From Minisyncoccia bacterium (GTDB lineage: Bacteria; Patescibacteriota; Minisyncoccia; JACQLN01): a stretch of 64,000 nucleotides of DNA. A model generated the notes under the pieces. The model did no database searches. It saw nothing but the letters and a program-made list of their open reading frames with translations, and was not told where the DNA came from. Shown piece after piece: positions 10,439 through 58,108 of this stretch. Position numbers and translations under genes: made by a program. The stretch covers positions 645 to 64,644 of the forward strand of contig JBASTM010000008.1 in assembly GCA_049274895.1 (NCBI GenBank), given 5' to 3'. The stretch's first letter is position 1, and every line of letters begins with the position of its first letter.

Positions 10439-10514
10439 TGGTGTCCCTGGCAGGAATTGAACCTGCGATCTCTTCCTCCGCAGGGAAGCGCTCTATCCGC
10501 TGAGCTACAGGGAC
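10439..10514 (-). tRNA. tRNA-Arg (anticodon GCG) with encoded CCA
   Basis: Minus-strand reading GTCCCTG…D-arm GCTCAGCGGATAGAGC, anticodon stem-loop CTTCC-CTGCGGA-GGAAG, T-arm GCAGG-TTCAATT-CCTGC and ACCA. Confidence 0.7.
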
Positions 10515-18534: not shown

Positions 18535-18662
18535 TAATGCTTGCATAGTACGGGCACTTAACCCGAGTACACCGCAATAATCCGCAAGGACAGCTGGGAG
18601 CTGTCCGAGCGGCTCGAACCATATTTTGCCTGCCTACCGGCAGGCAGGTCGGGGTTTTTTAT
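18535..18662 (+). ncRNA. Candidate small RNA (promoter-like TTATAAT followed by nested hairpins and a terminator)
   Basis: CTTATAATGCTTGCATAG, then hairpins (GACAGCTgggAGCTGTC and CGAGCggCTCG), then GCCTGCCTACCGGCAGGCAGG + TCGGGGTTTTTT; sits in a 420-nt intergenic region. Confidence 0.2.
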
Positions 18663-21340: not shown

Positions 21341-23464
21341 ATGCCCGCTTCAATTATAAATTGCTCTGATCTTAAAGAAGCCGATGTGGTTTTGTTGGGC
21401 GCCAATTACGACGTCACTTCGTCTTTTGGCAAAGGGGCGAGCCATGGCCCGGCGGCCATTATTGATTGCTTGCATACCCAAGTTGAATTTTTAGACCGCT
21501 ACACCGGCCTGACGCCGCGGGATCACTTGAAGATCGCTTACCAAGATTTGGGTGATCTAAATTCGCTTAGTCCCGAGGCAATGGTGGACAGAATCAAAAA
21601 CGCTTACGGCGAGCATTTGGGTTTTGGGCGTTTCAACATTCTTTTAGGCGGCGAGCATTCCGTGACCAGCGGGGCCTTAAAAGCCATCGGCCAGCGCCAT
21701 TTTCCGTCCGAAATAACCGTGGTGCAACTGGACGCCCATTTTGATTTGCGCGACACCGACGAGGATTTTAACGACCAGCCGTGGGGCAGGTATTCTCATG
21801 CCACAGTGATGAGGCGGGCCTTTGAACTCGGTTATAAAATAGTTTCGGTGGGCGTGCGGGCTTATTCCGGCCAAGAATACGATTTTGCCCGCGAGCGCGG
21901 CATTGCCTTTTTTGAATGGGGTAAAGGCAGGGTGCCTTCTCACCAAGAAATCTTAAAGGCCATTACCACCGACAAAGTTTATTTGACCATAGACGCGGAC
22001 GGTTTTGACCCGGTGCATCTGCCGGCCACCGGCACGCCCGTGCAGGGCGGGCTGGAATGGAATTACGCCTTAGGGCTGATAAGTGAAATTTTTAAGCATA
22101 AAAAAGTTGTCGGCGCCGATGTGGTGGAGGTTTCACCCAGGGCGGGCGATACGCTGACCGAATACGGCGCCGCCCAAATTTGCCATAATTTAATGGCCGG
22201 GCATTTAAGCGGGACCGATAAATTAAAAAATATGAATACAGAACCTGATTTTGGGCTTGACGGGAATCCGGGCCATCAAGTTGTTGGTGATGGCCAAATG
22301 GGCGCGCCGGTGATCGGCCGCAGCGTGGCAGAATGCGCTTCGTTAAAAGATATTTTTGAAAATGCCCTGCCGGCTTTCGGCGGAGCTTATCTTAAAAGAG
22401 TTTATAGTATTTTACGCCAGGCCATTTTAAACAACGTGCCTCTGGTAATAAGTATAGCCGGGCCGGTGACCGTGTCCGATCAGCACCGCGCCTGGCTGAT
22501 TCCCTTGCTGGAAACCGGCTGGGTGGCCTATTTAACTACCACCGACGCCGCCTGCTACCACGACGGCCACGACGCCTTGTATAAATCAGCCCCAGGGGAT
22601 CGCCCCATAAAAGAAGTTGATATTTTCGGCGACGACGGCGCTTACCGCGAAGCGGGAATCATACGCGTGGCCGATACCGGATTCAAAGAACAAGTTATTT
22701 TTGACCAGGACCGGATGATTTCGGCCGTGTTGCAACGTCCTGAATTCCAAAAACGCATGACCACCACCGAGCGCAATTATATGTTGGGTCGGTATTATCA
22801 AAATCAGGAAGAGGAAGTCGGTGTTCGGCCGGGGTTACTCTCCACTTGTTCGCGTTTGGGCCTGCCGGTGTTCGTGGGCGCCGCGGCCGACGGCAGCGCT
22901 TTTCTCAACTCCGTAAAACTGTGGGCCTTAAACCGTGTTTCCAACCGCCCCTATTGGTTTGACTATGATCTCCACGCCGACGTTTTTGAAAGCTGCGCTT
23001 ACCATTATTGGGGTCTTTTTGATTCCGAAGCCAAGGCCTTGGGCGCTTTGATTTTGGGCGGGGGCGTGCCCAAAAATTACAGTTTGCAGCCCGAGCCGAC
23101 GCTGTCGCAGATATTTTTGTTGCCGGGCATCCGCGGCTACGATTACGACGTCCAGATTGTATCTTCTCCGGTAACCGACGGCAGTTTATCTGGCTGTCTT
23201 CCGGCCGAGGCGGTGAGCTGGGGTAAGGTTAACCCCGAAACTTATCGCCAGCAAACCGAGAGCATGCAGGCCGATTATTCTATGGTAATGCCCTTCATCG
23301 TCAAAGCCCTGCTGGATGATCCCGCTCTTCCACGCCGGCCCCAGCTGGGTTTGTATCATCGCCGCCAGGAACTGGTTAACAAACTTTTTGACGCAGTGGC
23401 CCAGAACCAAGCGGCCATTGAAGAAACCTTAAATTATCCCCTTAAAATTGTAGCCAGTGCTTAG
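21341..23464 (+). CDS. Fusion protein: ureohydrolase (agmatinase/arginase family) N-domain plus deoxyhypusine-synthase-like C-domain
   Basis: N-terminal half GGEHSVT…DAHFDLRD…DADGFDP (Mn-binding ureohydrolase motifs); C-terminal half GGGVPKN…AEAVSWGKV (deoxyhypusine/homospermidine synthase NAD-site and catalytic-Lys motif). Confidence 0.6.
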   Translation: MPASIINCSDLKEADVVLLGANYDVTSSFGKGASHGPAAIIDCLHTQVEFLDRYTGLTPRDHLKIAYQDLGDLNSLSPEAMVDRIKNAYGEHLGFGRFNILLGGEHSVTSGALKAIGQRHFPSEITVVQLDAHFDLRDTDEDFNDQPWGRYSHATVMRRAFELGYKIVSVGVRAYSGQEYDFARERGIAFFEWGKGRVPSHQEILKAITTDKVYLTIDADGFDPVHLPATGTPVQGGLEWNYALGLISEIFKHKKVVGADVVEVSPRAGDTLTEYGAAQICHNLMAGHLSGTDKLKNMNTEPDFGLDGNPGHQVVGDGQMGAPVIGRSVAECASLKDIFENALPAFGGAYLKRVYSILRQAILNNVPLVISIAGPVTVSDQHRAWLIPLLETGWVAYLTTTDAACYHDGHDALYKSAPGDRPIKEVDIFGDDGAYREAGIIRVADTGFKEQVIFDQDRMISAVLQRPEFQKRMTTTERNYMLGRYYQNQEEEVGVRPGLLSTCSRLGLPVFVGAAADGSAFLNSVKLWALNRVSNRPYWFDYDLHADVFESCAYHYWGLFDSEAKALGALILGGGVPKNYSLQPEPTLSQIFLLPGIRGYDYDVQIVSSPVTDGSLSGCLPAEAVSWGKVNPETYRQQTESMQADYSMVMPFIVKALLDDPALPRRPQLGLYHRRQELVNKLFDAVAQNQAAIEETLNYPLKIVASA

Positions 23465-24643: not shown

Positions 24644-24852
24644 AAACCAAACGGCCATTGAAGAAACCTTAAACTATCCTCTCAAGATCATCACCCAATC
24701 CTAAAAATCTTAAAACGTATACCGAGCTAGCGGTAGCAAGCTCGGTATACAAATTATTGAACACCCGGTGTTTGATCGATAAAGTCTCTAATGTGGTGGA
24801 CGGATACAAGCATTTGATTTTCTAGCTCGTTTTTGGTATCTTTAGTTTTATT

Positions 24853-26598: not shown

Positions 26599-26940
26599 AT
26601 GGCTACAGCAACCAAGAAAGCAGCGGTAGAGGAAATCAAGCAAAGACTGCGGATCAAAATAAAAGCTTATGATTCCAAAATTATCGATGCTTCCTCGAAG
26701 CAGATAGTGGATATTGCTTTGCGCAACGGCGCCGAGGTGGTGGGGCCGGTGCCTCTGCCCACCGAGATTCATAAGTACACGGTCAACCGATCCACCTTCG
26801 TGCATAAGGATTCGCGGGAGCAGTTTGAGATGAGATCGCATAAAAGGTTGATTGATATTCTAAATCCCAACCCCAAGATTATAGACGCGCTGATGAACCT
26901 TAACCTGCCGGCCGGAGTGGATATAGAGATTAAGATGTAA
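26599..26940 (+). CDS. rpsJ: 30S ribosomal protein S10
   Basis: [13 protein letters not shown]…GPVPLPT signature. Confidence 0.9.
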
Positions 26941-27152
26941 GGGCTTTGTCTAAAAATTTGTCCCGTACGATACGGGACAAATTTTTAGGAACAAAACCTT
27001 ACCCCGCCCTAATTCTGTTTGCGAACTGCGATTTTCCGTGAGCTCGAGCGAAGCGCTTCGCTCGAAATCATTGGAAGTATCAAGATCGTGGCTGGAATTA
27101 GGGCGGGGTTCTATATTTTACAACTATTCGCTTTGCTCACAGGTAAAATATG
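26938..27152 (+). repeat. Modular intergenic cassette, copy A (rpsJ to rplC)
   Basis: Starts TAAGGGCTTTGTCTAAAAA on the stop codon; hairpin CTAAAAATTTGTCCCGTAcgaTACGGGACAAATTTTTAG; long-range stem ACCCCGCCCTAATTC…GAATTAGGGCGGGGT; ends …CTATTCGCTTTGCTCACAGGTAAAATATG. Confidence 0.65.
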
Positions 27153-27560
27153 AAATACATCATCGGAGAAAAATTAGGTATGACGCAGTTGGTGGGCGAA
27201 AAGGGCGAAATCATCCCGGTGACTTTGATTGGAGCCGAAACCGATTTCTCCCCGGGAGATTTAGTCAAAGTCAGCGCCCGTTCCACCGGCAAGGGTTTTC
27301 AGGGGGTGGTCAAAAGACATGGCTTTCACGGCAGTCCGGCTTCGCACGGCCACCACGCCGTGTTGCGCCGCCCCGGGTCCATTGGCGGGCGGTTTCCCCA
27401 GAGAGTTTTGAAAGGCAAAAGAATGGGCGGCCGTACCGGGGGCCAGAGAGTCACCGTCAAAAACTTGAAGGTGATCAGGGTAGATGCGGCCCTTAAGGTC
27501 ATTGCGGTTAGAGGAGCAATACCCGGGAAGAAAGGGACGAGGGTGGAAATCCGGACATGA
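27150..27560 (+). CDS. rplC: 50S ribosomal protein L3 (short form)
   Basis: N-terminus MKYIIGEKLGMTQL… matches the L3 start; only 136 aa. Confidence 0.8.
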   Translation: MKYIIGEKLGMTQLVGEKGEIIPVTLIGAETDFSPGDLVKVSARSTGKGFQGVVKRHGFHGSPASHGHHAVLRRPGSIGGRFPQRVLKGKRMGGRTGGQRVTVKNLKVIRVDAALKVIAVRGAIPGKKGTRVEIRT

Positions 27561-27621
27561 TATGCGAATAACGAATCTGCCCGAATATTACGAATAAAGA
27601 TTAAGATTCGCATACAAAATA

Positions 27622-28248
27622 ATGGAAACCAAAATATACAATCAAACGGGCGAGGAGGCGGGAACAGTGACGCTGTCCGAATCAGTTTTTGGTTTGCCTC
27701 AAAATTTGGATTTAGTGCATCAAATCAGAGTGGGCATGCTGGCCAATGCCCGGCGGCCGGTGGCCCACACCAAAAACAGGTCTGAGGTCAGGGGCGGCGG
27801 CAAAAAACCTTGGCGGCAGAAAGGCACTGGGCGGGCCCGGCACGGCTCGCGCCGCTCGCCTATCTGGAAGGGCGGGGGCGTTAGCCACGGACCGCGTAAG
27901 GAAAAAAATTATTCCCAAAAAATAAATTCGGCTATGGCCCGCAAGGCCCTGGGCACCGTTTTGAGTTCTAAATTTAAATCCGGCGAGGTCAGGGTGATAG
28001 AGGATTTTAGCTGGGATGGCATCAGCACCAAAAAGTTTGCCGCTTGGGCCAATAAAGCCGCCGGGGGCGATTTTAGAAGCTTGCTTATAGTGCTGGATCA
28101 CGGCGATGTTAATCTGGTTAAGTCCAGTCGGAATTTGGGTAATGTTGAAATCAAAACCGTTGGTAATTTGAACGTTTTGGATGCTCTTAAGTTTAAGAAA
28201 ATAATTTTTACCAAATCGGCTTTGAAAACCTTAGCTAGTAAAAAATAA
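27622..28248 (+). CDS. rplD: 50S ribosomal protein L4
   Basis: S10-operon position after L3; L4-like GGGKKPWRQKGTGRAR motif. Confidence 0.85.
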   Translation: METKIYNQTGEEAGTVTLSESVFGLPQNLDLVHQIRVGMLANARRPVAHTKNRSEVRGGGKKPWRQKGTGRARHGSRRSPIWKGGGVSHGPRKEKNYSQKINSAMARKALGTVLSSKFKSGEVRVIEDFSWDGISTKKFAAWANKAAGGDFRSLLIVLDHGDVNLVKSSRNLGNVEIKTVGNLNVLDALKFKKIIFTKSALKTLASKK

Positions 28249-28249
28249 T

Positions 28250-28657
28250 ATGTTTGGATTGAAAAAAGAAAAGAAAAGCCCCGCACCAGAGCGAAGCTCG
28301 GTGCGGGGTGAGAGTCTCCGACAGGTAAAAGCCGTCGGAACGTCTGATCAGGTTGTCAAAAATCTGTCTCGGGTGGCGGCCGGGTCAGTTTTGGTGAGGC
28401 CGGTAGTTTCAGAAAAGGCCTTAGGCGGAGAGGGCGGCGGTAAATATATGTTTAGAGTTCGGGGCGAGGCCACCAAACCGGAGGTGAAGAAAGAAATTGA
28501 AAAACTGTATCGGGTTAAGGTTACTAAAATCAATATGATAACGGTTCAACCCCGGCCCGTTTTTTTTAGAGGCCGGACCAACTACCGGTCGGGTTTTAAG
28601 AAAACTGTGGTTAAATTAGCCGCCGGGCAAAAAATAGAAGTGCTGCCTAAGCAATAA
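28250..28657 (+). CDS. rplW: 50S ribosomal protein L23 (with N-terminal extension)
   Basis: Position between L4 and L2; core …KYMFRVRGEATKPEVKKEIEKLYRVKV. Confidence 0.75.
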   Translation: MFGLKKEKKSPAPERSSVRGESLRQVKAVGTSDQVVKNLSRVAAGSVLVRPVVSEKALGGEGGGKYMFRVRGEATKPEVKKEIEKLYRVKVTKINMITVQPRPVFFRGRTNYRSGFKKTVVKLAAGQKIEVLPKQ

Positions 28658-28662
28658 TTATT

Positions 28663-29493
28663 ATGAAGTTCTATCGTCCTACATCACCCTCTAGGCGCGG
28701 CATGAGCGGTATTGAATACCGTAAATTTATTACTGCCCGGGAGCCGTTAAAATCTTTGGTAACGAGGCTAAAAACCAAAAGCGGCCGCAACAATTCCGGC
28801 CGGATAACCGTGCGGCATCAAGGCGGCGGCGTTAAGAGAAACTATCGCCTGGTTGATTTTAAGCAATCGGGTTCGGCCCAAACAGCCACAGTGGAAACAA
28901 TTGAATATGATCCTTACCGGACTGCTTTTATTGCGCGGCTGCTCTATAAAAATGGGAAGAGAGGCTATATTCTGGCGCCCCAAGGTCTTAAGGTGGGTGA
29001 TGAAGTTATGTCACACCGAGACAATCCCATTGCTTTGAATACGGGCCACCGCACACAATTGAAGAATATACCCGTGGGTACTTTTGTTCACAATGTGGAG
29101 TTGAGACCCGGCCACGGCGGCCAGTTGGGCCGGGCCGCCGGCACCTCGGTTAAGATTATGGCCCGGGAGGGCGGCTATGTTAACCTGGGGTTGCCTAGCG
29201 GTGAGGTCAGAAAAGTCCAGGAAACATGCTTTGGTTCCGTGGGCGCCGTTTCTAACCCGGAAAACGCGATGGTGACCGTGGGTAAAGCCGGTCGGTCGCG
29301 TCACATGGGTGTGAGGCCGACGGTGCGCGGTACGGCCATGAATCCGGTGGATCACCCCCACGGCGGCGGCGAGGGTAAACAGCCCCGGGGTCTTAGGCGA
29401 CCCAAAAATGCTTGGGGCAAGGGCACCCGAGGCGTCAAAACCAGAAGCAGAAAAAATCGTTCCAATATATTTATAGTTCAAAGGAGAAAATAA
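28663..29493 (+). CDS. rplB: 50S ribosomal protein L2
   Basis: …GRNNSGRITVRHQGGG… and …HPHGGGEGK… signatures. Confidence 0.9.
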   Translation: MKFYRPTSPSRRGMSGIEYRKFITAREPLKSLVTRLKTKSGRNNSGRITVRHQGGGVKRNYRLVDFKQSGSAQTATVETIEYDPYRTAFIARLLYKNGKRGYILAPQGLKVGDEVMSHRDNPIALNTGHRTQLKNIPVGTFVHNVELRPGHGGQLGRAAGTSVKIMAREGGYVNLGLPSGEVRKVQETCFGSVGAVSNPENAMVTVGKAGRSRHMGVRPTVRGTAMNPVDHPHGGGEGKQPRGLRRPKNAWGKGTRGVKTRSRKNRSNIFIVQRRK

Positions 29494-29703
29494 GGGCTTT
29501 ACCCAAGAGCGGAGCGATTGGTTGTAAAACCTTACCCAGCACATAAATCAACGAGTCATGACAATAAAATATATAAAATCAAAATCAATAAAAGGTCAGT
29601 ATGCAAACAAAACCACACCCAGTGGATTTATGTGCTGGGTGCTCACTTTTATAACTAAATTTTATACGCTAAGCAGCTCTAAAATTTAGACAAAACTGGC
29701 ATG
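29491..29703 (+). repeat. Modular intergenic cassette, copy B (rplB to rpsS)
   Basis: Starts TAAGGGCTTTACCCAAGAGCGGAGCGATTGG; hairpin CCCAGCACATAAATC…GATTTATGTGCTGGG; ends GTGCTCACTTTTATAACT…TTTAGACAAAACTGGCATG. Confidence 0.6.
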
Positions 29704-30051
29704 GCGCGAAGTTTAAAAAAAGGTCCGTTTGTGGACGAAAAATTATTGCGTAAGCTAAAAGCCCTGGGCCAGGGTTCCCGTGAGGTTATTAAAACTTGGT
29801 CACGGGCCTCGACCATTACTCCGGAGATGGTGGGTTTTACCCTGGGCGTTCATAACGGTAAAATCCATGTACCGGTGACGGTGAGCGAGGAAATGGTCGG
29901 CCACAAGCTGGGCGAGTTTTCTTTGACGCGCAAGTTCGTGCGCCATGGCGGCAAGATGCAGCGCGAACTGGAAGCCGCACAAAAAACCGCCGAACTAGCC
30001 AAAACAGAAGCCGAAAAAACGGCGGCGCCGGCTCCAGCCAAGAAACCATGA
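29701..30051 (+). CDS. rpsS: 30S ribosomal protein S19 (with C-terminal extension)
   Basis: [16 protein letters not shown]… is the canonical S19 start. Confidence 0.9.
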
Positions 30052-30557
30052 AAGTTGTAGCCAAACTAAATTATCTTCATATCAGCCCCAGAAAAGTGAG
30101 AGCGGTGGCGGGTGTGGTTAAAGGTCTTAGAGCCGAGGCCGCGTTGGCGCAACTTAAATTTGTCCCCAATCGAGCGGCCGCGCCTTTATTTAAGTTGATA
30201 AAGTCGGCCATAGCCGACGCCGAAAATAATTTTTCTTTGGAACCGAGCAGTTTAAGAATTGCCGAACTTAAGGTTGATGGCGGCCCGGTGTTCAAAAGGT
30301 TCCGGCCGGGTTCCAAGGGCCGGGCCGCGCCGTTAAAGAAAAGAACAGCGCACGTGAAATTGGTTTTGGAAGGCGAGAGGACCGCGAGTCCCCAGGCGAG
30401 AAAGGCCGCAGAGAAAATTGAGTTTGAGGTTGCTCCGGACAAAGCGGCCGTCAAGCCGCGAGAGGAGGAGCATCGGCGGGATACTTTCCAGGCCCGACGT
30501 GTTCCGGTAAAAAAGACGGGGTTCGTTAAAAGAATGTTTCAACGCAAATCAATTTAA
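30048..30557 (+). CDS. rplV: 50S ribosomal protein L22 (with basic C-terminal extension)
   Basis: …[18 protein letters not shown]… L22 core. Confidence 0.85.
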
Positions 30558-31240
30558 TGGCTCACAAGATCAACCCCATAGCTTTCCGGCTCGGCATACA
30601 AAAAGATTGGAAGTCGCGCTGGTTTAACACCAAAAACTTCAAAAATTATTTGGAGGAAGATTTTGCCATCAGAAGTTGGCTGGAAAAGAAACTGGCCAAG
30701 GCTTCTTTGGAGAGCGTGGAGATAGTGAGGTCGGGCAGCTCCATTGGGGTGGTAATGAAATCGTCCCGTCCTGGTCTTATCATTGGCCGGGGCGGCAAGG
30801 GTTTGGAAGAACTTCAGCAGGGCCTCAAGCGCGAGTTGGGTAAAATTTACGCGGCTAGAAAGTCTAAATTAAATCACTCCCTTAAATTAGAAATAGAAGA
30901 AATAAAAAAACCGGAAAGCTATGCTAGGTTGGTAGCCAAGAACATAGCCGAACAGTTGGAAAAAAGAATTCCGCATCGCCGGGCTATGAAACAGATGATT
31001 GAGAAGGTTTCCGGAGAGGGCGGTATTAAGGGTGTAAAAATAAAAGTGGCCGGCCGGCTGGGCGGCGCCGAAATTGCCCGGCGGGAACAATTGGCCAAAG
31101 GCAAAATTCCGCTTCAGAGTTTAAGGGCGGATATAGACTATGCCCAAGCCGAAGCCCATACCACTTACGGCGTTATCGGTGTTAAAGTCTGGCTGTATAA
31201 AGGAGATGTTTTTTCCGATACTGCCCGCGAACAAAAGTGA
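30557..31240 (+). CDS. rpsC: 30S ribosomal protein S3
   Basis: [14 protein letters not shown]… start and KH domain. Confidence 0.9.
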   Translation: MAHKINPIAFRLGIQKDWKSRWFNTKNFKNYLEEDFAIRSWLEKKLAKASLESVEIVRSGSSIGVVMKSSRPGLIIGRGGKGLEELQQGLKRELGKIYAARKSKLNHSLKLEIEEIKKPESYARLVAKNIAEQLEKRIPHRRAMKQMIEKVSGEGGIKGVKIKVAGRLGGAEIARREQLAKGKIPLQSLRADIDYAQAEAHTTYGVIGVKVWLYKGDVFSDTAREQK

Positions 31241-31294
31241 GCGGGGTGCTCAATTTAATAGCTATTCGCTTCGCTCATAGATAAAATTGGCATG
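31238..31294 (+). repeat. Modular intergenic cassette, copy C (minimal; rpsC to rplP)
   Basis: TGAGCGGGGTGCTCAATTTAATAGCTATTCGCTTCGCTCATAGATAAAATTGGCATG — only the conserved 3' module. Confidence 0.65.
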
Positions 31295-31705
31295 CTATTA
31301 CCCAAAAGAGTAAAACACAGAAAATGGCACAAAGGCCACAACCGCGGTTTGGCCAGTCGCGGCAATAAACTTAATTTTGGCGCCTGGGGTCTTAAATCTT
31401 TGGAGACCTGCTGGCTTAGTTCGCGCCAGATTGAAGCGGCCCGCCGGGCGATGACTCATTTTGTTCAAAGAGGCGGTAAGATTTGGATCCGTGTTTTTCC
31501 TGATAAACCAGTCACCAAAAAGGGAGCCGAGGTGGGCATGGGCGGCGGCAAGGGCGCGGTGGATCACTTTGTTTTTCCGTTAAAGCCCGGCCGCGTTATT
31601 TTTGAAATGGATGGCGTCAGCCAAGAAACGGCCGAAGAGGCCTTGCGCCTGGCGGCCCACAAATTGCCGGTTAAAACTAAGATAATAAGTGCTAGCAATG
31701 ATTAA
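31292..31705 (+). CDS. rplP: 50S ribosomal protein L16
   Basis: [11 protein letters not shown]… L16 start. Confidence 0.9.
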
Positions 31706-31886
31706 AGCTAAAGATTTAAGATCCAGGGCCAAAGAGGATTTAGAGAAAATGCTCCAAGGCGAGCGGTCGAAGCTGAGAGAGCTTAATTTTAAGTTGTCCG
31801 GCGCCCGGCTTAAGAACGTAAGTGAGTTCGGTAAAACCAAACATATGATAGCGGTCTTGTTGACCATTATAAAGGAAAAAGAATAA
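31689..31886 (+). CDS. rpmC: 50S ribosomal protein L29
   Basis: Small coiled-coil protein between L16 and S17. Confidence 0.75.
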
Positions 31887-31890
31887 TATC

Positions 31891-32172
31891 ATGTCCAAAA
31901 GAATACTAAGGGGTCGGGTAGTAAGCGTTAAAATGAAAAAGACCGCGGTGGTTGAAGTGATATCTTTGAAAACCCATCCTAAATACAGGAAAAAAATAAA
32001 ATCCACCAAAAAGTATAAGGCCCATCACGAGGACCTGGTTTTGGGTGTGGGTGACGTAGTGACCATAGAAGAATCTCGCCCGATTTCTAAAGATAAACAT
32101 TGGGTCATCAAAACAATTTTATCTTCTCCGAAGACAGTCTCCCTAGATTCGGAGGTAACACAACTAAAATGA
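31891..32172 (+). CDS. rpsQ: 30S ribosomal protein S17
   Basis: …[16 protein letters not shown]… OB-fold S17. Confidence 0.85.
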
Positions 32173-32534
32173 TTCAATTGCGTTCAATGTTAAAAGTTGC
32201 CGATAACAGCGGGGCCAAATTGGTCCAGTGTATTAAAGTTTTGGGCGGAACCAGGCGGCGCTATGCCCGGGTGGGCGATATTATTGTTGTTTCGGTTAAG
32301 GCAGCCGAACCCAGAAAAACAGTTAAAAGAAAAGAGGTAGCGAGAGCAGTTATCGTCAGGCAGAGAAAAGAATACCGCCGGCAGGATGGAACGTCGTTGA
32401 GGTTCAGCGACAACGCGGTGGTTATGGTAGACGGCAAAGAGCCGCGCGGCGGGCGCATTTTTGGGCCTATCCCCAGGGAGCTTAAGGAGAAAGGCTTTGA
32501 TAAGATAATTTCTTTGGCTGAAGAAGTGGTATAA
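32169..32534 (+). CDS. rplN: 50S ribosomal protein L14
   Basis: [17 protein letters not shown]…; start chosen at the conserved L14 N-terminus rather than the ORF-track start at 32100. Confidence 0.85.
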
Positions 32535-32680
32535 GGGCTTTGTCTAAAAAATGGAACGAAGTGGACATTTTTTAGCTACAAAACCTTATCCTGAACGTAG
32601 TGAAGGATTACCCCTCGGTTTTTACCTCGGGGTGCTCAATTTAATAGCTATTCGCTTCGCTCATAGATAAAATTGGCATG
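32532..32680 (+). repeat. Modular intergenic cassette, copy D (rplN to rplX)
   Basis: TAAGGGCTTTGTCTAAAAAATGGAACGAAGTGGACATTTTTTAG hairpin … AAAACCTTA … GGGGTGCTCAATTTAATAGCTATTCGCTTCGCTCATAGATAAAATTGGCATG. Confidence 0.65.
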
Positions 32681-35162: not shown

Positions 35163-35672
35163 ATGGCAGAATTTACATATAATCAAAGAAGGTCTTCGGG
35201 TGGGCGATCGCAATTCAGGGAGAAAAAGGACAAGGATTTTGAGGAGAAAGTTTTGGAACTGGCCCGGGTGACTAGGGTGGTAGCCGGGGGTAAGCGTTTT
35301 AGATTTAGAGCCACTGTGGCCATTGGTGACGGCAAAGGCCGGGTGGGTTTGGGTATTGGCAAAGGCGCTGATGTGGCTCAAGCGGTCCAAAAAGCTTCGT
35401 ATCGAGCCAGAAAAAATCTGGTGAATGTTCCCATAGTCAACGGCACCATACCTGCTGAAATCAAAGTTAAGTATAGCTCGGCGGTGGTGTATTTGAAACC
35501 AGCTCCGCCGGGCCGCGGCATCAATGCCGGCGGCGCCGTTAGGGTTATTTCCAGTTTGGCCGGCATCAAAGACATTATTGGCAAGATTTTGTCGCCTTCG
35601 GTCAATAAAATAAATATTGCCAGTGCCACCTTGGAAGCTTTCAAGATATTGGCGGCCAAGTCAAAAATATAG
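35163..35672 (+). CDS. rpsE: 30S ribosomal protein S5
   Basis: …LARVTRVVAGGKRFRFRATVAIGDGKGRVGLGIGK… S5 dsRBD. Confidence 0.9.
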   Translation: MAEFTYNQRRSSGGRSQFREKKDKDFEEKVLELARVTRVVAGGKRFRFRATVAIGDGKGRVGLGIGKGADVAQAVQKASYRARKNLVNVPIVNGTIPAEIKVKYSSAVVYLKPAPPGRGINAGGAVRVISSLAGIKDIIGKILSPSVNKINIASATLEAFKILAAKSKI

Positions 35673-35702
35673 GACCTATAAGTCTTATAGGACTTAATAT
35701 AT

Positions 35703-36146
35703 ATGGATCTGCACAATCTTAAACCAAAAACTAAAACCAAAAAAATAAAAAGAATCGGACGGGGCGGCAAACGCGGCACCACTTCCGGCCGCGGCACCAA
35801 GGGCCAAAAATCGCGCGCTGGCCGCAGAATCAGGCCGGCTATTAGGGATTTGATGATGAAGATCCCCAAAGCGCGGGGCTTTAGTTTTAAAAGTTTTAAG
35901 GGAGATTTTGTGGCTGTGGATTTGGCTGTGATTGAAGCCGGTTTTGGTCCGGGTGAAAAAGTTACGCCCCGAACCTTATTGGATCGCGGCTTGGTGTCTG
36001 TTAAGAAGGGATCTTTGCCTAAGATTAAAATCTTAGGCGCCGGCCGCCTCTCTAAAAAATTGATTTTTGAGAATCTGGCTGTCACCCAATCGGCTGCCCA
36101 AAAAATTCTAGCTTTGGGCGGCGAAGTGAGGCAACCGGTTAGATAA
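35703..36146 (+). CDS. rplO: 50S ribosomal protein L15 (no L30 gene between S5 and L15)
   Basis: …GRGGKRGTTSGRGTKGQKSR… L15 glycine-rich N-terminus; rpmD absent. Confidence 0.85.
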   Translation: MDLHNLKPKTKTKKIKRIGRGGKRGTTSGRGTKGQKSRAGRRIRPAIRDLMMKIPKARGFSFKSFKGDFVAVDLAVIEAGFGPGEKVTPRTLLDRGLVSVKKGSLPKIKILGAGRLSKKLIFENLAVTQSAAQKILALGGEVRQPVR

Positions 36147-36180: not shown

Positions 36181-37449
36181 ATGAGTAAGTTTTTACAAAT
36201 TTTCAAAATACCAGACTTAAGAAAAAAGATATTTTTTATACTGGCCATGCTGGTGGTTTTTAGATTGGTTTCGGCCGTGCCGATGCCGGGCATAGACCGG
36301 GCGAAGTTGGCCGAATTTTTCGCTTCCAACCAATTTTTGGGCTTGGTCAGCTTATTTACCGGCGGCACGCTGCAGAATTTTTCGGTGGTGCTTTTGGGTT
36401 TGGGGCCGTACATTACGGCTTCCATCATTATGCAGCTTTTAACTATGATTTTTCCCAAACTTCGAGAGATGTATTTGGAATCCGGCTCGGAAGGGCGGGC
36501 CAAGTTCAATCAATTTTCGCGCTTGCTCACGGTGCCCTTGGCGGCGATGCAGTCGGTGGGCACGGTGTCTTTGCTAAAAAGCCAGGGTATTATCAGCCAA
36601 TTGGCCGCTTTTGATTTTATTACTTTGGTGGTTACGGTTACGGCCGGTTCCGTCTTTTTGGTTTGGTTGGGCGAGATTATTTCCGAGAAAGGCATCGGCA
36701 ATGGAGTTTCTCTGTTGATCTTCGCCGGCATCATCGCTCAACTGCCGGTCAGTATCGGTCAAAGTCTGGTGGCCTTTGATCCGAGCCAGGTCTTTAGTTA
36801 TTTAGTTTTTACCGCCGTGGCGGTGGTGGTTATCGCCGGCGTGGTGGTGATCTCGGAGGGCCAGCGCAACATTCCGGTGGCTTTTGCCAAACGAGTCCGC
36901 GGCCGCAGAATGTATGGCGGCTTTTCCAGCCATATACCCTTACGCGTTAATCAGGCCGGGGTCATTCCCATAATTTTTGCTTTATCCATTTTGCTTTTTC
37001 CGGGCCTGATCGCCCAGTTTCTGTCCGGTTCCAGCATTGGCTGGCTGGCCGCCTTGGCTCAGTCGGTGGCCGCCTTTTTCCAGCAATCTTTAACCTATGG
37101 GATAATGTATTTTATTTTAGTGGCGGTGTTTACCTACTTTTACACCGCCGTCACTTTTGATCCTAAGGCCATTTCGGAGAACGTCCAAAAGCAGGGCGGT
37201 TTTATCCCGGGCATCAGGCCGGGCGAACCTACAGCCGGTTTCATCGCCCACGTGGTCAACCGCATCACTTTGGTAGGAGCTTTGTTTTTGGGCGTTATTG
37301 CGGTTTTGCCGCTGGTGGTGCAAAGAGCTTTTGGCATCAGCACGCTCACTTTGGGCGGCACGGCCCTGTTGATTGTGGTCTCGGTGGTTTTGGAAACTAT
37401 GCGCCAAATCAACGCCCAGCTGACGCTTAGGGAATATGATACTTTTTAA
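36181..37449 (+). CDS. secY: Preprotein translocase subunit SecY
   Basis: 10 TM helices; position after L15. Confidence 0.9.
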   Translation: MSKFLQIFKIPDLRKKIFFILAMLVVFRLVSAVPMPGIDRAKLAEFFASNQFLGLVSLFTGGTLQNFSVVLLGLGPYITASIIMQLLTMIFPKLREMYLESGSEGRAKFNQFSRLLTVPLAAMQSVGTVSLLKSQGIISQLAAFDFITLVVTVTAGSVFLVWLGEIISEKGIGNGVSLLIFAGIIAQLPVSIGQSLVAFDPSQVFSYLVFTAVAVVVIAGVVVISEGQRNIPVAFAKRVRGRRMYGGFSSHIPLRVNQAGVIPIIFALSILLFPGLIAQFLSGSSIGWLAALAQSVAAFFQQSLTYGIMYFILVAVFTYFYTAVTFDPKAISENVQKQGGFIPGIRPGEPTAGFIAHVVNRITLVGALFLGVIAVLPLVVQRAFGISTLTLGGTALLIVVSVVLETMRQINAQLTLREYDTF

Positions 37450-37772
37450 TGTTTGTCTGCGAGTGTAACGAGCAGCCACAAACATTAACCCCGCGTCAAT
37501 TTTGCCTCGGGTATATTGCCTAACATCCAATATCTGTAAAACTTGTATATTTTTGCGAAGCGCGAGGGCGAATAGCCCACCCCTTTGGTGGCGTAGCGCT
37601 TCGCCATCGACTATATGCAAAATTGGTGCTGGGGTAGCGGTGACTCTTTTTTATTAAAACAAGAATAAAGGGTAAATCAAATAAATAACCATAGACACGC
37701 CCACCAGCAGGGCGGCGATTATCCAAAAGAGTCTAACTATTTTTTTATGTTTGTTCACGTTATCATATTACC

Positions 37773-40536: not shown

Positions 40537-41650
40537 ATGACCCCAGAATTTAAGAGCAGATTGGAAGATTTATCAAATAAGCTCCGTCACCTGACGGACC
40601 GTCTTTGACCTTGCCCCCAAGAAGAATCAGCTTAATAATTTGGAGGCGGAAACAACCGGAAAAGACTTTTGGCAAAACCGCCTTCATTCCCGAAGTGTCC
40701 TCCGTGAGATTACCGACCTAAAAGATTTGGTTAGTAAGTGGGGAAATTACGAGAGCGATCTTAAACATCTGGCCGAAGTGGCCGAAATTTTTGAAGACTT
40801 GGCGGATAACGGCCAATTGTTTAAGGAATTCAAAAGATCTTTGGAAAAACTGGAGCTCGAGCTGGAAAAAGAAGAAACTTTGGTTTATATGTCGGGCCGT
40901 TACGACAAAGCTAACGCCGTTATGACCATTTATTCCGGCGCTGGCGGAACAGATGCCCAGGAGTGGGTGGAAATGCTGCTTAAGATGTATTTAAAATACT
41001 CCGAGAAAACCGGGTTCAAAACTCAAGTGATGGCGGTTACCGGTGGGCAGGAATCCGGCCTCAAAAATGCTATAATAGAGGTACACGGCCAATATGCCTA
41101 CGGCTACTTAAAACGGGAGAACGGTGTTCACCGCCTGGTTAGGGTTTCGCCGTTTTCATCGCAGAGTTTGAGGCATACCTCGTTCGCTTTAGTTGAGGTT
41201 TTGCCCGAACTGGACGGTGTTTCGGCTATAGAAATAAGGCCGGAGGATATTAGGGTGGATACCTACCGGGCCGGCGGGCCGGGCGGTCAATATGTTAACA
41301 AAACAGAATCAGCCGTAAGAGTAACGCACCTGGCCACGGGTTTGGTGGCAACTTCGCAGGCCGAAAGATCGCAGGGCACCAATAAAGACAAAGCCATGAA
41401 ACTGCTTTACGCCAAGCTTCAGCAAAGATTGGATCAAGAACATAAAAAGACCGTGGAGGAACTAAAAGGTGAGAACGTAAAGATAGAGTGGGGGCATCAA
41501 ATACGTTCCTATGTGTTGAACCCGTATAAAATGGTTAAAGACCACCGCACCGGTTATGAAACTACTCAAGCCGAAAATGTGTTGGCAGGAAATTTGAAAG
41601 ATTTTATAGAAGCTGAACTAAGGGCTTGGCCTGCGAGCGAAAGCGAGTAG
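40537..41650 (+). CDS. prfB: Peptide chain release factor 2 with programmed +1 frameshift (ORF1 40537-40608; +1 frame 40607-41650)
   Basis: ORF1 ends …GAC CGT CTT TGA C, the canonical CUU UGA C shift site; the +1 frame continues DLAPKKNQL… into the RF2 body with SPF and GGQ regions (…RAGGPGGQYVNKTESAVRVTH…). Confidence 0.85.
40603..40609 (+). promoter_or_regulatory. prfB +1 ribosomal frameshift site CTT TGA C
   Basis: An in-frame TGA after 23 codons; downstream +1 frame is the RF2 body. Confidence 0.8.
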
Positions 41651-41762
41651 TTGCCAAACCTTACCCAGCACCTTTTTGAGGTAAAGATTATTTATACATC
41701 TAAAAGGTGCTGGGTGCTCAATTTTATAACTATTTACTACGCTCTTAGATAAAATTGGCATG
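41648..41762 (+). repeat. Modular intergenic cassette, copy E (prfB to ftsE)
   Basis: AACCTTACCCAGCACCTTTTTGAGGTAAAGATTATTTATACATCTAAAAGGTGCTGGGTGCTCAATTTTATAACTATTTACTACGCTCTTAGATAAAATTGGCATG. Confidence 0.65.
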
Positions 41763-43416: not shown

Positions 43417-43800
43417 CTATAACTTCATATTGAGGGCGTGTTCCAGTTTGAGCAGTTTTCTTTCATGTTCATCCATTGTTTTTCTAACATCAAGTTTACT
43501 TTCCAGTTCGTCAAATCTTTTATCTAGATATTCATTTTGTTTCTCGAAAGCTTTGGCAACTATTCGGGCCAGGGTTTCCGTTTGTTGATCGGTGTAGCTT
43601 TTTAGTTCCTGTGACTGCGTAGCCAGTTGCCCGTCAACATAACCTTTCAACTCCTTGGTGTTAATCGATAATCTTCCATCGACATAACCTTTTAACTCCT
43701 TAGTGTTAACCGATAATCTTCCGTCAACGTAAACCTTAAGTTCTTTGGTTTGAACGTTAAGCAGCCGCTGTATATCTTTTTTGGTAAGGTTGGGGTTCAT
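43417..43800 (-). CDS. Hypothetical coiled-coil protein with three tandem 15-aa repeats (TKELKGYVDGRLSxN)
   Basis: The protein repeat is visible in the translation, with the corresponding 45-nt DNA repeats. Confidence 0.45.
   Translation of the reverse strand: MNPNLTKKDIQRLLNVQTKELKVYVDGRLSVNTKELKGYVDGRLSINTKELKGYVDGQLATQSQELKSYTDQQTETLARIVAKAFEKQNEYLDKRFDELESKLDVRKTMDEHERKLLKLEHALNMKL
43625..43760 (-). repeat. Three tandem 45-nt coding repeats (third degenerate)
   Basis: ccgtcaacataacctttcaactccttggtgttaatcgataatctt recurs with a few substitutions. Confidence 0.6.
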
Positions 43801-44540: not shown

Positions 44541-44719
44541 GATATAAAGTCAAAAATTAAAAATCAAATCTCAAAATTAATTGTATCATTATTTATCAAA
44601 AGGCGTAACCTTAAACACCGCTTCTTGTTTGTTTTCAAAAAACAAAATAGCATATTTAATCAACTGGTTTGATTATCTATCTTGTATTTGCTAATATGAA
44701 ATCAATATAATTTTCTAAT

Positions 44720-58066: not shown

Positions 58067-58108
58067 ATATTATAAATTAACATACTAACGATTATAATCA
58101 AATTGGGT

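Follow-up and report, generated by a model that had tools for sequence, protein, structure and literature searches.

The 64-kb window, by which we mean the whole stretch of DNA analyzed, contains six copies (c1–c6) of a cassette, all on the + strand and in one common orientation, at the positions given in an earlier note on this DNA. The best explanation as a whole, in which we place a little less than even confidence, is that these copies are part of a large, hitherto undescribed palindromic-unit mosaic repeat family in Parcubacteria-type CPR bacteria. The cassette consists of one hairpin unit of ~50–75 nt in two specialized, mutually inverted versions: the A version lies after genes and shares bases with their stop codon through its 5′ foot, (T)AAGGGCTTTGTC; the C version lies before genes and joins directly onto the start codon by its 3′ foot, ..ATTGGC-A. 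In the full cassette, unit A is followed by a variable hairpin B (hpB) closed by CCC/GGG and then by unit C; that is, two copies of one palindromic unit flank a variable hairpin, as in REPIN/BIME.

Copies of the Cassette in the Window

Both a repeat search (families D1/D4/D7) and nhmmer group c1–c6 as a single repeat family, and a covariance model (CM) run with filters off recovers all of them (47–81 bits, E 2e-9 to 2e-17). For the core 18-mer, 4 matches were found where 0.01 would be expected. Unless stated otherwise, the parts described below are on the + strand.

In c1, unit A (26938–27001; sequence and fold, with a weak inverse CM match at 26936–27011 on the minus strand) has a foot, TAAGG..CCTTA, that takes in the rpsJ stop codon TAA (26938–26940) and encloses a perfect 18-bp hairpin. 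It is followed by hpB, CCCCGCCCTAATTC...GAATTAGGGCGGGG (27002–27108; sequence and fold), and by a diverged short form of unit C (27109–27152; CM match 27099–27156, 66.6 bits) that has no TTGGC and whose stem, TATTTTAC/GTAAAATA, reaches into the rplC ATG (27150–27152). Unit A of c2 runs from the rplB stop codon TAA and has the loop GAGCGGAGCGA (29491–29534; inverse CM match 29489–29544, minus strand, 40.9 bits, E 8e-8). Its hpB, CCCAGCACATAAATC...GATTTATGTGCTGGG, has a 75-nt AT-rich loop (29535–29639; sequence and fold), and its unit C (29640–29703; CM match 29630–29703, 47.3 bits, and alignment) is of the long type, its inner stem being extended (CTAAATTTTA/TAAAATTTAG), and ends on the rpsS ATG at 29701. 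The third copy is a unit C alone (31238–31294; CM match 31237–31294, 80.6 bits), in which the rpsC stop codon TGA is followed by GCGGGG, hairpin C, and the rplP ATG at 31292; a mini-hpB uses CCCGC (31224–31228) within the coding end of rpsC. The orthologous junction in locus L010 is empty ('TAAacATG').

Unit A of c4 starts from the rplN stop codon TAA and has the loop GAACGAAGTGGA (32532–32588; sequence and fold, with a weak inverse CM match at 32530–32598). The hpB region that follows (32589–32632; fold) comprises two small hairpins with the G-run at the end, and a 91% identical copy (107 nt) precedes another gene in locus L036; unit C is a short form that extends to the rplX ATG at 32678 (32633–32680; CM match 32623–32680, 74.4 bits). 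In c5, the TAA of unit A (41619–41663; inverse CM match 41617–41673, minus strand, 34.3 bits, and comparison with the empty site of L019 and the filled site of L022) is out of frame, and the upstream release-factor gene (40640–41650; Pfam PCRF + RF-1) runs 30 nt into the cassette, stopping inside unit A at TAG 41648–41650. The hpB of c5, CCCAGCACCTTTT...AAAAGGTGCTGGG (41664–41714; repeat search and fold), is spanned by a 122-nt repeat (D3) that is 84% identical between c5 and c6, and unit C (41715–41762; CM match 41705–41762, 77.2 bits), which ends on the ftsE ATG at 41760, has a CTCTTAG variant in common with the orthologous L022 copy. The sixth copy comprises unit A, TAAGTATTTGTCC...GACAAATAGTTA, from the stop codon of an open reading frame at 63148–63798 (63796–63838; inverse CM match 63794–63848, minus strand, 32.2 bits), hpB (63839–63889; sequence, repeat search, and fold), and unit C, CAATGTTGT/ACAACATTG (63890–63940; CM match 63880–63937, 77 bits), with the ATG at 63938, 2 nt past GGCA.

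The window also holds two lone A-type units. A seventh unit on the + strand, TAATGTTTGTC...ACAAACATTAACCCC (37447–37498; CM match 37443–37498, minus strand, 36.8 bits, and sequence), is flush with the secY stop codon TAA and has no C unit after it. The other, GATTTTGT-ATGAACGAAGTGAAT-TCACAAAATC, is on the minus strand (58266–58316; CM match 58266–58316, plus strand, 28.6 bits, and sequence); it is A-type relative to the minus-strand gene at 58371–59384, and its surroundings are hairpin-rich.

Three features ascribed to every copy by the earlier note are true of only some. A start with TAAGGGCTTT on the in-frame stop codon is confined to c1, c2, and c4; c6 starts with TAAGTATTTGTCC on its stop codon, c3 has no 5′ module and starts at the rpsC TGA, and the TAA of c5 is out of frame. 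Only c3 and c4 (53/53 identical) have the conserved 3′ sequence in its exact form, with identities to it of 87% in c5, 77% in c6, and 74% in c1. The ATG directly follows in c2–c5, but not in c6, where it comes 2 nt later (GGCATATG), or in c1.

Structure and Covariation

The form of the hairpins was said to be kept while the stem sequence varies, and this is correct and, for hairpin C, statistically strong. In the alignment 96.2% of cells are paired, and 13 of the 15 pairs have changed on both sides (154 such cells). None of 500 shuffles reached this result, and slid controls gave 28–49%; the computation was also made on the short forms alone, and RNAalifold was run as well. Diverged copies outside the search-pattern selection compensate too (CAATGTGA/TCACATTG, CCATTTTGT/ATAAAATGG, and CATGATTGT/ACAATCATG). 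Selection on structure is thus upheld, but the specification that it acts on RNA is not: G.U (G.T) pairs are no commoner in the stems than A.C mismatches (18 vs. 19), and no cassette-specific loop–loop covariation was found between its two units. Structure kept in DNA and structure kept in RNA therefore both fit.

The 5′ module is an inverted homolog of the 3′ module, as the unit-C CM matches it on the opposite strand (40.9, 34.3, and 32.2 bits), and the same CM identifies this inverted A/C doublet in six other loci. The G-run, a possible Shine-Dalgarno (SD) sequence, is always paired with the C-run of hairpin B, C-only copies included, making a free SD doubtful. Stem length varies among short, long, and complex forms; most window copies are short forms, and the long form is the majority among loci from other genomes.

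Distribution and Turnover

A genome scan identified 54 loci, about 47 of them from CPR bacteria. The units number 74 by nhmmer and 83 by the CM, in about 45 loci that come from many Parcubacteria-type genomes. The units match no Rfam family, and no family members were found in viral contigs. Among the 74 units, 52 (70%) end exactly on ATG; the base following GGC is nearly always A, and non-AUG starts are almost absent. The 5′ feet overlap an in-frame stop codon in 28 of 44 cases. Because a TAATG overlap occurs in only 4 of 138 cassette-free co-directional junctions, the double abutment of the cassettes is not passive. All units (100%) have the same orientation relative to genes, and the downstream genes are mostly essential housekeeping genes; ~15–20% of the units have no gene after them, and some copies are followed by a terminator instead.

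The units multiply and turn over within genomes; their variants are genome-specific, and in the same operon different junctions are filled in different lineages. The window and L022 both carry a cassette at the ftsE junction, which reads 'gaaTAATGatt' in L019; at the secY junction L006, L010, and L019 are filled and the window is empty, and the rplP, rpsN, rpsH, rplR, rpsE, and rplV junctions likewise vary in occupancy. The 3′ unit is ~90% conserved where coding DNA is conserved at ~65–70%; in L010 the module is 93% identical to the window and coding DNA 65–74%.

The cassettes occur within transcription units, some between cistrons and others in 5′ UTRs downstream of canonical promoters. A canonical TTGACA-N17-TATAAT lies ~65 nt upstream of the whole cassette in locus L015, and the cassettes of L012 and L051 are within long 5′ UTRs that have no gene upstream.

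Possible Function and Alternative Explanations

On the best reading, to which we give not quite an even chance, the cassette is a proliferating palindromic-unit repeat that is transcribed within mRNAs and whose ends restore the stop and the start. The presence of the same repeat in many related genomes suggests that it probably affects translation of the next gene. The mRNA would carry a copy of the cassette, upstream translation would terminate within the foot of unit A, and unit C would set the AUG at the 3′ foot of a conserved helix without preventing efficient initiation on essential genes, which must hold because the insert parts these genes from any earlier ribosome-binding site or leaderless promoter. 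The cassette would then be kept as a portable stop–restart junction. Our preferred guess is direct initiation at the helix-foot AUG, where the helix might occupy the place of the usual SD/anti-SD helix or might bring the anti-SD-complementary GGGGUG of the opposite foot beside the AUG, as in phage T4 gene 38; alternatively, a cut at the helix foot could give a leaderless mRNA. Counting against this reading, an AUG at the foot of a stable helix is normally expected to inhibit initiation.

A live rival, although an unlikely one, is that the cassette punctuates the mRNA and is excised from the polycistronic transcript; RNase processing or attenuation cassettes were among the options listed in the earlier note. 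RNase III, for instance, could act on the long hairpins or on an A:C foldback, or else an endonuclease could cut the AU-rich loop of hairpin B, with RNase J and PNPase then trimming the ends; RNase III and both trimming enzymes are retained in CPR bacteria (PMC12641178). Unit A would be left as a protective 3′ hairpin on the upstream message, and the downstream message would start from the AUG or just before it, leaderless or hairpin-capped, in the manner of mitochondrial tRNA punctuation. Excision would explain units specialized for gene ends and gene starts and their abutment on both sides, and the near-invariant A after GGC and scarcity of non-AUG starts suit leaderless translation. The genome appears to use leaderless mRNAs: TANNNT is enriched 6–9 nt ahead of the ATG (19/71 genes). 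Long near-perfect duplexes are moreover formed by hairpins A and B, and folding of c2 and c6 indicates that the whole cassette could fold back. However, the short-form hairpin C, at only 13–14 bp, is short for RNase III, and because stem lengths differ among the forms, the cut site of a ruler-type nuclease such as RNase Z would shift from one form to another; in addition, tRNA detectors miss the units and wobble pairs are not favored.

Less likely again is a purely selfish DNA repeat of the REP/REPIN type with no positive effect on expression, which would be moved as single-stranded DNA by a transposase (tyrosine or HUH) whose gene lies elsewhere. Its insertion specificity would be directly 5′ of ATG (3′ of CAT on the other strand), and codon abutment would reflect this specificity together with survival of harmless insertions. 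If AAGGGC...TTGGC is placed just before ATG, an ATGA overlap indeed yields exactly the junctions of c5 and L022, and a TAATG overlap has its TAA restored. The suggestion of a MITE-like family at gene boundaries, made in the earlier note, is largely supported by the inverted doublet architecture, the genome-specific variants, the turnover of junctions, and the ending of contigs at cassette copies, all of which, with the lack of a G.U excess, also count in favor of a selfish repeat; REPs, too, typically lie as inverted dimers after genes, in the space separating unidirectional ORFs (PMC3733652, PMC3337134). Classical terminal inverted repeats with target duplication are absent, however. The single empty/filled comparison revealed no target duplication, and 15 nt present in the empty-site relative are missing from the filled sites. 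No transposase (Y1 included) or other mobilizing enzyme was found in 420 kb, which is a weak test. Weighing further against pure selfishness, the units keep their sequence across deep lineages far better than ribosomal-protein genes do, unusual behavior for REPs, they have no unpaired GTAG/CGTC end tag, and they combine uniform orientation with ends that have diverged into stop-specific and start-specific feet. Even if the repeat were selfish, translation of essential downstream genes would have to pass through the insert, and unit C therefore cannot be neutral to initiation.

Improbable is the leading idea of the earlier note, namely that the 3′ module is an internal promoter, its −10 being TAGATA, from which transcription begins at the A of ATG to give a leaderless mRNA. 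The exact abutment on ATG with its invariant A and the frequent leaderless-type promoter geometry in the window are in its favor, and a weak TTGTAA-N16-TAGACA-N8-A can be read in some short forms. However, TAGATA lies in the 3′ arm of the hairpin, which covaries with the 5′ arm (ATAAAATTG / ACAACATTG / TCACATTG / ACAATCATG), neither it nor TAGACA, the commonest form, has T at hexamer position 6, and TAAAAT/CAACAT is just 4 nt before the ATG. Any −35/−10 spacing is lost in the long and complex forms, a promoter scan of the modules finds nothing, and some copies precede a terminator rather than a gene. Cassettes are, furthermore, downstream of canonical promoters, as in L015, and the genome's own promoters are canonical TGnTAnnnT boxes.

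Least probable of all is a global translational operator or sensor, in which the AUG would be sequestered within hairpin C (the A and U of the AUG pairing with the U and G of GGGGUGC) until a trans factor, temperature, or alternative pairing opens it, so that many housekeeping genes are co-regulated, the 5′ arm of long forms having two possible partners, an internal segment (which leaves the AUG free) and the 3′ arm (which puts the AUG at the helix foot): enriched conserved loops (UUCGCU..GCUCA in C and GAGC..GCGAA in A; 13 sites in the window vs. 3.7 expected), triple covariation of the 5′ arm, internal segment, and 3′ arm in L013, ATAGC/GCTAT in L039, and extra conserved hairpins in complex forms, as are frequent in structured RNAs, speak for it, but short forms have no alternative pairing, junction occupancy varies too much by lineage for a conserved regulon, the closing pairs beside the AUG do not covary, the G three bases ahead of ATG changes uncompensated (ATTGGC to ATTAGC or ATTCGC), and no ligand-pocket-like conservation is seen.

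Comparison with Known Systems

By the definitions used here (PMC3733652, PMC3337134), the cassette resembles REP/BIME/REPIN elements in its many copies of imperfect palindromic units, its inverted pairs around a spacer that as a doublet can form a larger hairpin, its genome-specific variants, and its position just past coding regions, between unidirectional or convergent genes, where it is plausibly transcribed. It differs in that its units are 50–75 nt rather than 20–40 nt, carry no unpaired GTAG/CGTC tag, and have no RAYT that we could find; its two orientations have diverged into stop-codon- and start-codon-specific versions, 70% of its units are fused to ATG in fixed orientation to genes, and its sequence is kept across very deep lineages.

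Like the cassette, ERIC/IRU, Correia (NEMIS), and pneumococcal BOX elements are intergenic and co-transcribed, imperfectly palindromic or modular (A-B-C), and may carry optional internal insertions. Conservation between genera is unusually high for ERIC too, and Correia hairpins in mRNAs are RNase III substrates. The cassette, in contrast, has neither TA target duplication nor terminal inverted repeats at its extreme ends, and its host group is CPR; none of these families is reported to end exactly on start codons. Mycobacterial interspersed repetitive units (MIRUs) likewise are intercistronic, overlap the upstream stop and downstream start, and preserve polycistronic expression. MIRUs are tandem 40–100 bp units with a small relay ORF, whereas the cassette is a single hairpin cassette with covarying stems and no conserved ORF (a GTG-initiated frame is open in it but is not conserved among length variants).

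Two further systems are functional analogies only. In mitochondrial polycistrons, tRNAs flush with stop and start codons give rise to leaderless mRNAs; by tRNA detectors the cassette units are not tRNA-like, and their cleavage is only putative. At the hairpin-bridged sites of T4 genes 38 and 25, an SD-like GGGGUG and the AUG are at the two feet of a hairpin, ~6 nt apart when folded; unlike these single genes, the cassette is a portable multi-copy module whose G-run is also paired in hairpin B.

Cassette Copies and Their Anatomy

A repeat search of the window grouped six cassette copies on the plus strand, confirming the positions at which the earlier note had placed them: 26938-27152 (c1, before rplC), 29491-29703 (c2, before rpsS), 31238-31294 (c3, before rplP), 32532-32680 (c4, before rplX), 41648-41762 (c5, before ftsE), and 63796-63940 (c6). 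A core 18-mer has four matches in the window where 0.01 are expected. The further claim that every copy starts on the upstream stop codon holds for only part of the set: an in-frame stop with TAAGGGCTTT is found only in c1, c2, and c4, and c6 has TAAGTATTTGTCC, but c3 consists of the 3' module alone, and the TAA of c5 is not in frame, its upstream gene (encoding a release factor with PCRF and RF-1 domains) extending 30 nt into the cassette. The 3' sequence quoted as conserved is likewise exact in c3 and c4 (53/53 identical) but is matched at 74-87% identity in c1, c5, and c6, and c2 carries a longer form of the module.

In the predicted fold, a full copy is composed of three adjacent hairpins. 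The foot of the 5', gene-end hairpin (hairpin A, or unit A), TAAGG..CCTTA, includes the stop codon; the middle hairpin (hairpin B) is variable and closed by CCC/GGG; and the 3', gene-start hairpin (hairpin C, or unit C) is followed by GC and then by ATG. In hairpin C, the outer stem spans 9 bp (CAATTTTAT/ATAAAATTG) and is followed by an internal loop of 2 nt, a short CTA/TAG inner stem, and a pyrimidine-rich loop of conserved sequence (TTCGCTnCGCTCA). Unit C occurs in a short class of 49 nt, which is the main type in the window, a long class of 64-76 nt with an inner stem CTAAATTTAT/ATAAATTTAG and an internal segment, and a complex class of 130-170 nt whose loop holds three additional nested hairpins. 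Among loci retrieved from other genomes, complex forms lie at L006 1568-1890, L046 1398-1539, and L048 1843-1976; their extra hairpins are conserved at the same loop position (GGYTGY..RCARCC, ATCCAGC..GCTGGAT, and GCAAGC..GCTTGC), and the insert resembles a miniature A-B-C cassette.

A covariance model built from unit C has opposite-strand matches to the 5' modules in c2 (40.9 bits), c5 (34.3 bits), and c6 (32.2 bits), weak ones in c4 and c1, and inverse matches in six other loci (L011, L012, L022, L037, L051, and L055). Hairpin A is therefore the reverse-complement homologue of hairpin C, with the purine-rich GAGC..GCGAA of A corresponding to UUCGC..GCUC of C. The feet of the inverted versions have diverged, to (T)AAGGGCTTTGTC...ACAAAACCTTTACCC in A and GGGTGCTCAAT...ATTGGCA in C, and orientation relative to genes is uniform in all observed units. 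The model identifies 13 units within the 64 kb of the window. Solitary A-type units lie at 37443-37498 (model match; the unit itself spans 37447-37498), adjoining the secY stop codon, and at 58266-58316, after the minus-strand gene 58371-59384; a listed ORF at 58085-58402 falls in this hairpin-rich stretch and is possibly not a gene.

Other Structured Repeats in the Window

The start of the annotated rplW ORF (28250-28350) contains, within the first ~35 codons of L23, a hairpin CCCCGCACC-AGAGCGAAGCTC-GGTGCGGGG that bears the loop motif of the A type and has GGGGTGAG after it; the conserved core of L23 begins only near SVLVRPVVSEKA, and this stretch may be a degenerate cassette between rplD and rplW combined with a mis-set start codon. 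The rplC/rplD spacer (27563-27615) is filled by an unrelated palindrome, ATGCGAAT...ATTCGCAT, which begins 1 nt past the stop codon of rplC and reaches to 8 nt before the ATG of rplD. On the minus strand, a segment of ~125 nt occurs twice with ~90% identity (10317-10462 and 59344-59489), directly downstream of tRNA-Arg(gcg) and tRNA-Leu(gag) and beginning inside the tRNA 3' ends. Within this segment, a hairpin TCGCC-TCGCTTCGCTC-GGCGA bearing the unit C loop motif precedes two TTTTGGGGG boxes, and the second copy extends to the start codon of the gene that follows (ATG at 59342); the segment is possibly another recurrent leader cassette. A GC-rich palindrome, CCTGCC(T)GCCGGCAGGCAGG, has five matches in the window compared with 0.15 expected, among them 9543-9562, 18629-18648, and 58183-58198, and is also nested in a unit C loop of another genome (L033 6380-6482), which suggests a second small hairpin repeat common to several genomes. 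Two-copy direct repeats of 89-93% identity pair 23405-23448 with 24645-24688 and 44603-44644 with 45312-45353, and a tandem 45-nt repeat (43631-43720) is part of an ORF on the minus strand (43417-43800) for which Pfam gives no match.

Distribution of the Family and Turnover of Its Sites

One scan of species-representative genomes, using a degenerate 21-mer from the 5' arm as query, found 54 loci, ~47 of them in candidate phyla radiation (CPR) genomes and ~7 elsewhere as chance matches. The CPR matches, often several loci per genome, carry the labels Parcubacteria, Portnoy-, Yanofsky-, Harrison-, Azam-, Sung-, and Brennerbacteria, and include 'Saccharibacteria'-labelled MAGs; nearly all hold the complete module to ..ATTGGCATG, a segment that the pattern does not specify. 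Several matches of the scan lie at contig ends. Profile search of the retrieved DNA yielded 74 units, and the covariance model yielded 83 in 378 kb of related loci. Copies within a genome carry private variants, as seen in all copies of CAZJVK01, in all copies of CAYPFS01, and in hairpin B of c5 and c6, and L036 has a 91% identical copy of hairpin B plus unit C of c4 before a NusG-like gene. The retrieved loci yielded no autonomous copy carrying a gene within hairpin B; two candidates proved to be C units, with nested hairpins or diverged sequence. The element was not described in the literature searched. A tRNA-like or otherwise known RNA was rejected, as ARAGORN and Rfam find nothing in the cassettes: at the gathering threshold, Rfam 15 returned tRNAs and RNase P alone in the window and nine loci, and E-value scans added nothing but chance microRNA-like hairpin matches. 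Viral contigs gave no matches in the first scan and 28 in a scan that took the 3' arm and ATG as its pattern, all of them lying in coding DNA that lacks the 5' arm and their number being close to chance expectation by a hand estimate from pattern degeneracy and a guessed collection size.

Occupancy of orthologous junctions differs between lineages. The ftsE junction is filled in the window and L022 and empty in L019 ('gaaTAATGatt'). The secY junction is filled in L006, L010, and L019 and empty or different in the window. At rplP, the window (C only) and L006 (complex form) are filled and L010 reads 'TAAacATG'; at rplX, the window, L006, and L024 are filled and L010 has an unrelated large hairpin. 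The rpsC, rpsN, rpsH, and rplR junctions are filled in L024, and the rpsE and rplF junctions in L043, all being empty or different in the window and L010, and the rplV junction is filled in L021 and L010 and empty or different in the window. The ftsE copies of the window and L022 share the private variant CTCTTAG, which points to long residence at that site. The L010 insert (3364-3516), at the rplN/rplX junction that c4 occupies in the window, is a different hairpin element of ~150 nt (AAACATCACTCC...GGAGTGATGTTT), and thus one junction hosts unrelated structured inserts across lineages.

Selection on Hairpin C

Unit C is ~90% identical between genomes whose ribosomal-protein operon DNA is just 65-74% identical, and hairpin C is under selection. 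That its stems vary while their form is kept, as the earlier note had proposed, is borne out by covariation. A model-based alignment covering 82 distinct units has 96.2% of its cells paired, and 13 of 15 pairs have changes on both sides (154 cells); none of 500 shuffles matches any measure that counts compensatory change, and sliding the partner by 1-3 columns lowers pairing to 28-49%. A MAFFT alignment of the short forms alone agrees with this covariation, and compensating copies occur outside the reach of the search pattern (CAATGTGA/TCACATTG, CCATTTTGT/ATAAAATGG, CATGATTGT/ACAATCATG, and CAAATTTGT/ACAAATTTG). In the long forms, the 5' arm can also pair with the internal segment and covaries with it, as in a triple change in L013 and ATAGC/GCTAT in L039. 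Stem mismatches give no signal of an RNA-specific wobble signature (18 G.T vs. 19 A.C). Kissing between the A and C loops was rejected: the complementarity of these loops across the family (-11.9 vs. -7.8 kcal/mol for a shuffled partner) is due to the inverted homology, and individual cassettes show no covariation of their own (self -11.9 vs. cross -11.4, p = 0.55).

Codon Boundaries and Gene Context

The end of the unit falls exactly on ATG in 52 of the 74 units and two bases short of it in 4 others; the base after GGC is nearly always A, and L009 has ATT in place of ATG, before a phosphomannomutase-like FKAYDVRG. On the 5' side, 28 of the 44 recognisable feet share 1-3 nt with the in-frame stop of a long co-directional ORF, and in nine of the 44 the upstream ORF enters hairpin A by 15-39 nt. 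Cassette-free co-directional junctions in the same DNA have TAATG overlaps in 4 and ATGA overlaps in 21 of 138 cases, and TAATG is thus so rare that passive insertion after stop codons alone cannot yield 70% ATG abutment. A scheme that fits, we infer, is an AAGGGC...TTGGC element placed directly 5' of ATG: at an ATGA overlap, it produces the exact c5 and L022 junctions (GAA CT|A AGG GCT...GGC|ATG ATC), and at a TAATG overlap, the TAA is regenerated.

The downstream genes, judged by eye from translations, are mostly essential housekeeping genes, encoding ribosomal proteins (L3, S19, L16, L24, S3, S14, S8, and S5) as well as SecY, NusA, NusG, GreA, FtsH, DnaJ, SSB, GyrB, LigA, ribonucleotide reductase, FtsE, FtsW, MurG, Map, ArgRS, and RuvA. 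Some cassettes lie in 5' UTRs without an upstream gene; in L015, a canonical TTGACA-N17-TATAAT is found ~65 nt upstream of the 5' foot, with L012 and L051 similar. A few units have a bidirectional terminator and a convergent gene in place of ATG.

Extended -10 boxes of canonical type (TGnTAnnnT) form the window's own promoters. Enrichment of TANNNT is seen 6-9 nt upstream of ATG (19 of 71 genes), with extended -10 boxes at this distance at, for example, 51769, 53261(-), and 951(-); SD-like tetramers peak 8-10 nt before ~12 genes, and strong SDs (AGGAGGTG) are present at a handful of genes only, such as 9100(-), 57082(-), and 17102(-). Leaderless and SD-led initiation therefore both appear to be used, and leaderless translation is probably common in the window. 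The encoded L3 has only 136 aa and no central extension (27150-27560), and rpmD (uL30) is absent between rpsE and rplO (35672-35703), both of which fit the reduced ribosomes of CPR bacteria (PMC9297842).

Interpretation of the Cassette

The data directly show the unit and its covariation, the inverted doublet, the abutment on stop and start codons, turnover from lineage to lineage, a strong constraint on sequence, and a transcribed setting. With slightly less than even confidence, we read the cassette as a proliferating palindromic-unit repeat of the REP/BIME/REPIN kind that resides inside transcription units, its inverted versions having specialised as gene-end and gene-start units to form a portable stop-restart junction. 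We infer that the cassette is tolerated, or favoured, because unit C still permits efficient initiation at the AUG at its foot. Since essential genes have been severed from any earlier ribosome-binding site or leaderless promoter, unit C must permit initiation somehow; the ribosome might initiate directly at the helix-foot AUG or after cleavage to a leaderless or hairpin-capped mRNA.

That unit C is a new SD-independent start-site element is a doubtful proposition. Such an element would be a conserved helix with the AUG at its 3' foot, at which Parcubacterial ribosomes would initiate either directly, the helix taking the place of the SD/anti-SD duplex, or once precise cleavage has produced a leaderless mRNA. 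With unit A, it would make up a mobile 'gene punctuation' cassette, insertable between any two cistrons or before any gene without loss of expression. In a hairpin-bridged ribosome-binding site of the T4 gene 38 type, a hairpin brings a free SD to ~5-9 nt of the AUG. The 5' foot of hairpin C carries GGGGUG, which is complementary to a canonical anti-SD and would lie 4 + 2 nt (~6 nt) from AUG in the folded hairpin; the DNA analysed contains no 16S 3' end. In every copy, C-only ones included (c3, L010, and L019), GGGGUG pairs with the C-run of hairpin B, and a free SD is therefore doubtful. Two other translational roles were rejected. A GTG-initiated frame is open in unit C, but a leader peptide is contradicted by its varying length and frame across variants and by third codon positions that are conserved to the same degree as the other two; the 5'-UTR copies without an upstream gene and the C-only copies contradict translational coupling as the only function. 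The punctuation rival, in which cleavage to a leaderless or hairpin-capped mRNA precedes initiation, is unlikely; measuring of an RNase Z type was rejected, as stem lengths differ.

A purely selfish DNA element with ATG-directed insertion is quite unlikely. Cassette-free co-directional junctions in the same DNA have TAATG overlaps in 4 and ATGA overlaps in 21 of 138 cases, and TAATG is thus so rare that passive insertion after stop codons alone cannot yield 70% ATG abutment. A scheme that fits, we infer, is an AAGGGC...TTGGC element placed directly 5' of ATG: at an ATGA overlap, it produces the exact c5 and L022 junctions (GAA CT|A AGG GCT...GGC|ATG ATC), and at a TAATG overlap, the TAA is regenerated.

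A promoter is very improbable, and the leaderless form of it put forward in the earlier note, with TAGATA as the -10, was rejected on geometry and covariation. Leaderless sigma-70 geometry places TANNNT 6-9 nt upstream of ATG, with the -35 at 16-18 nt. TAGATA and the commonest form, TAGACA, are without T at position 6, TAAAAT and CAACAT lie 4 nt from ATG, the putative -10 covaries as a stem arm, long forms alter the spacing by 20-90 nt, and the cassettes lie downstream of real promoters. A global translational switch is the least probable reading of all.

Translation start in CPR bacteria is, to our knowledge, largely unknown. A helix of 50-75 nt is here fused to the start codons of dozens of essential genes (e.g., those for ribosomal proteins, SecY, NusA/G, FtsH, GyrB, and LigA), and its being better conserved than these genes across deep lineages offers a testable handle on CPR initiation. 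We know of no earlier REPIN/BIME-like repeat family in CPR genomes. The cassettes also break metagenome assemblies, mislead gene callers, with upstream ORFs entering unit A and start codons possibly misplaced, and provide a sequence marker for the clade. The ribosomes of CPR bacteria are reduced, and a subset of the Parcubacteria is without the anti-SD motif (PMC9297842). If unit C turns out to be a start element independent of an SD, or a signal for punctuation, this would be of direct relevance to initiation by such reduced ribosomes.

Comparison with Known Systems

Integron attC sites have R''/R' core sites (RYYYAAC / GTTRRRY) around an imperfect palindrome and occur in arrays of accessory genes, whereas the cassettes have no core sites and are located within the conserved S10/spc ribosomal operon and ahead of genes such as ftsE and secY. 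An intrinsic terminator is a GC-rich hairpin directly before a U tract; in contrast, hairpin C is AU-rich and followed by GGCAUG and coding sequence, and although some inner A hairpins are GC-rich with A/T-rich flanks, their T run is within the stem. A classical MITE has terminal inverted repeats at its extreme ends and a target-site duplication. The MITE-like family suggested in the earlier note stands as a repeat family at gene boundaries, but the extreme ends of the cassette (AAGGGC.. and ..TTGGCA) are not mutual inverted repeats, and the filled ftsE junctions of the window and L022 show no target duplication relative to the empty one of L019 (TAATG).

The closest likeness is to REP sequences and their composites. 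As in those families, many imperfect palindromic units occur per genome, although at 50-75 nt they are longer than classical REP units of 20-40 bp (PMC3733652), and the cassette is an inverted doublet of one unit around a spacer, as REPINs and BIMEs are two REPs inverted around a spacer (PMC3337134, PMC3733652). REPs are extragenic, most of them following coding regions and lying between ORFs that are unidirectional or convergent (PMC3733652); similarly, the 5' feet of the cassettes sit on upstream stops and some copies lie between convergent genes, with a few in 5' UTRs. REP units bear an unpaired GTAG or CGTC tag at one end (PMC3733652), whereas the cassette ends, (T)AAGGGC and TTGGCA, have no such tag, and GTAG is present only inside the 5' arm TTGTAGCTA, where it varies (ATAAC, GTAAC, ATAGC). 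A tblastn search for a RAYT/Y1 transposase in 420 kb, using IS200 and IS608 TnpA as approximate queries, gave no match better than E = 0.6, and ten window ORFs contain no transposase domain. Fusion to the start codon, the functional split between orientations, and deep conservation within the CPR set the cassette apart from every family compared.
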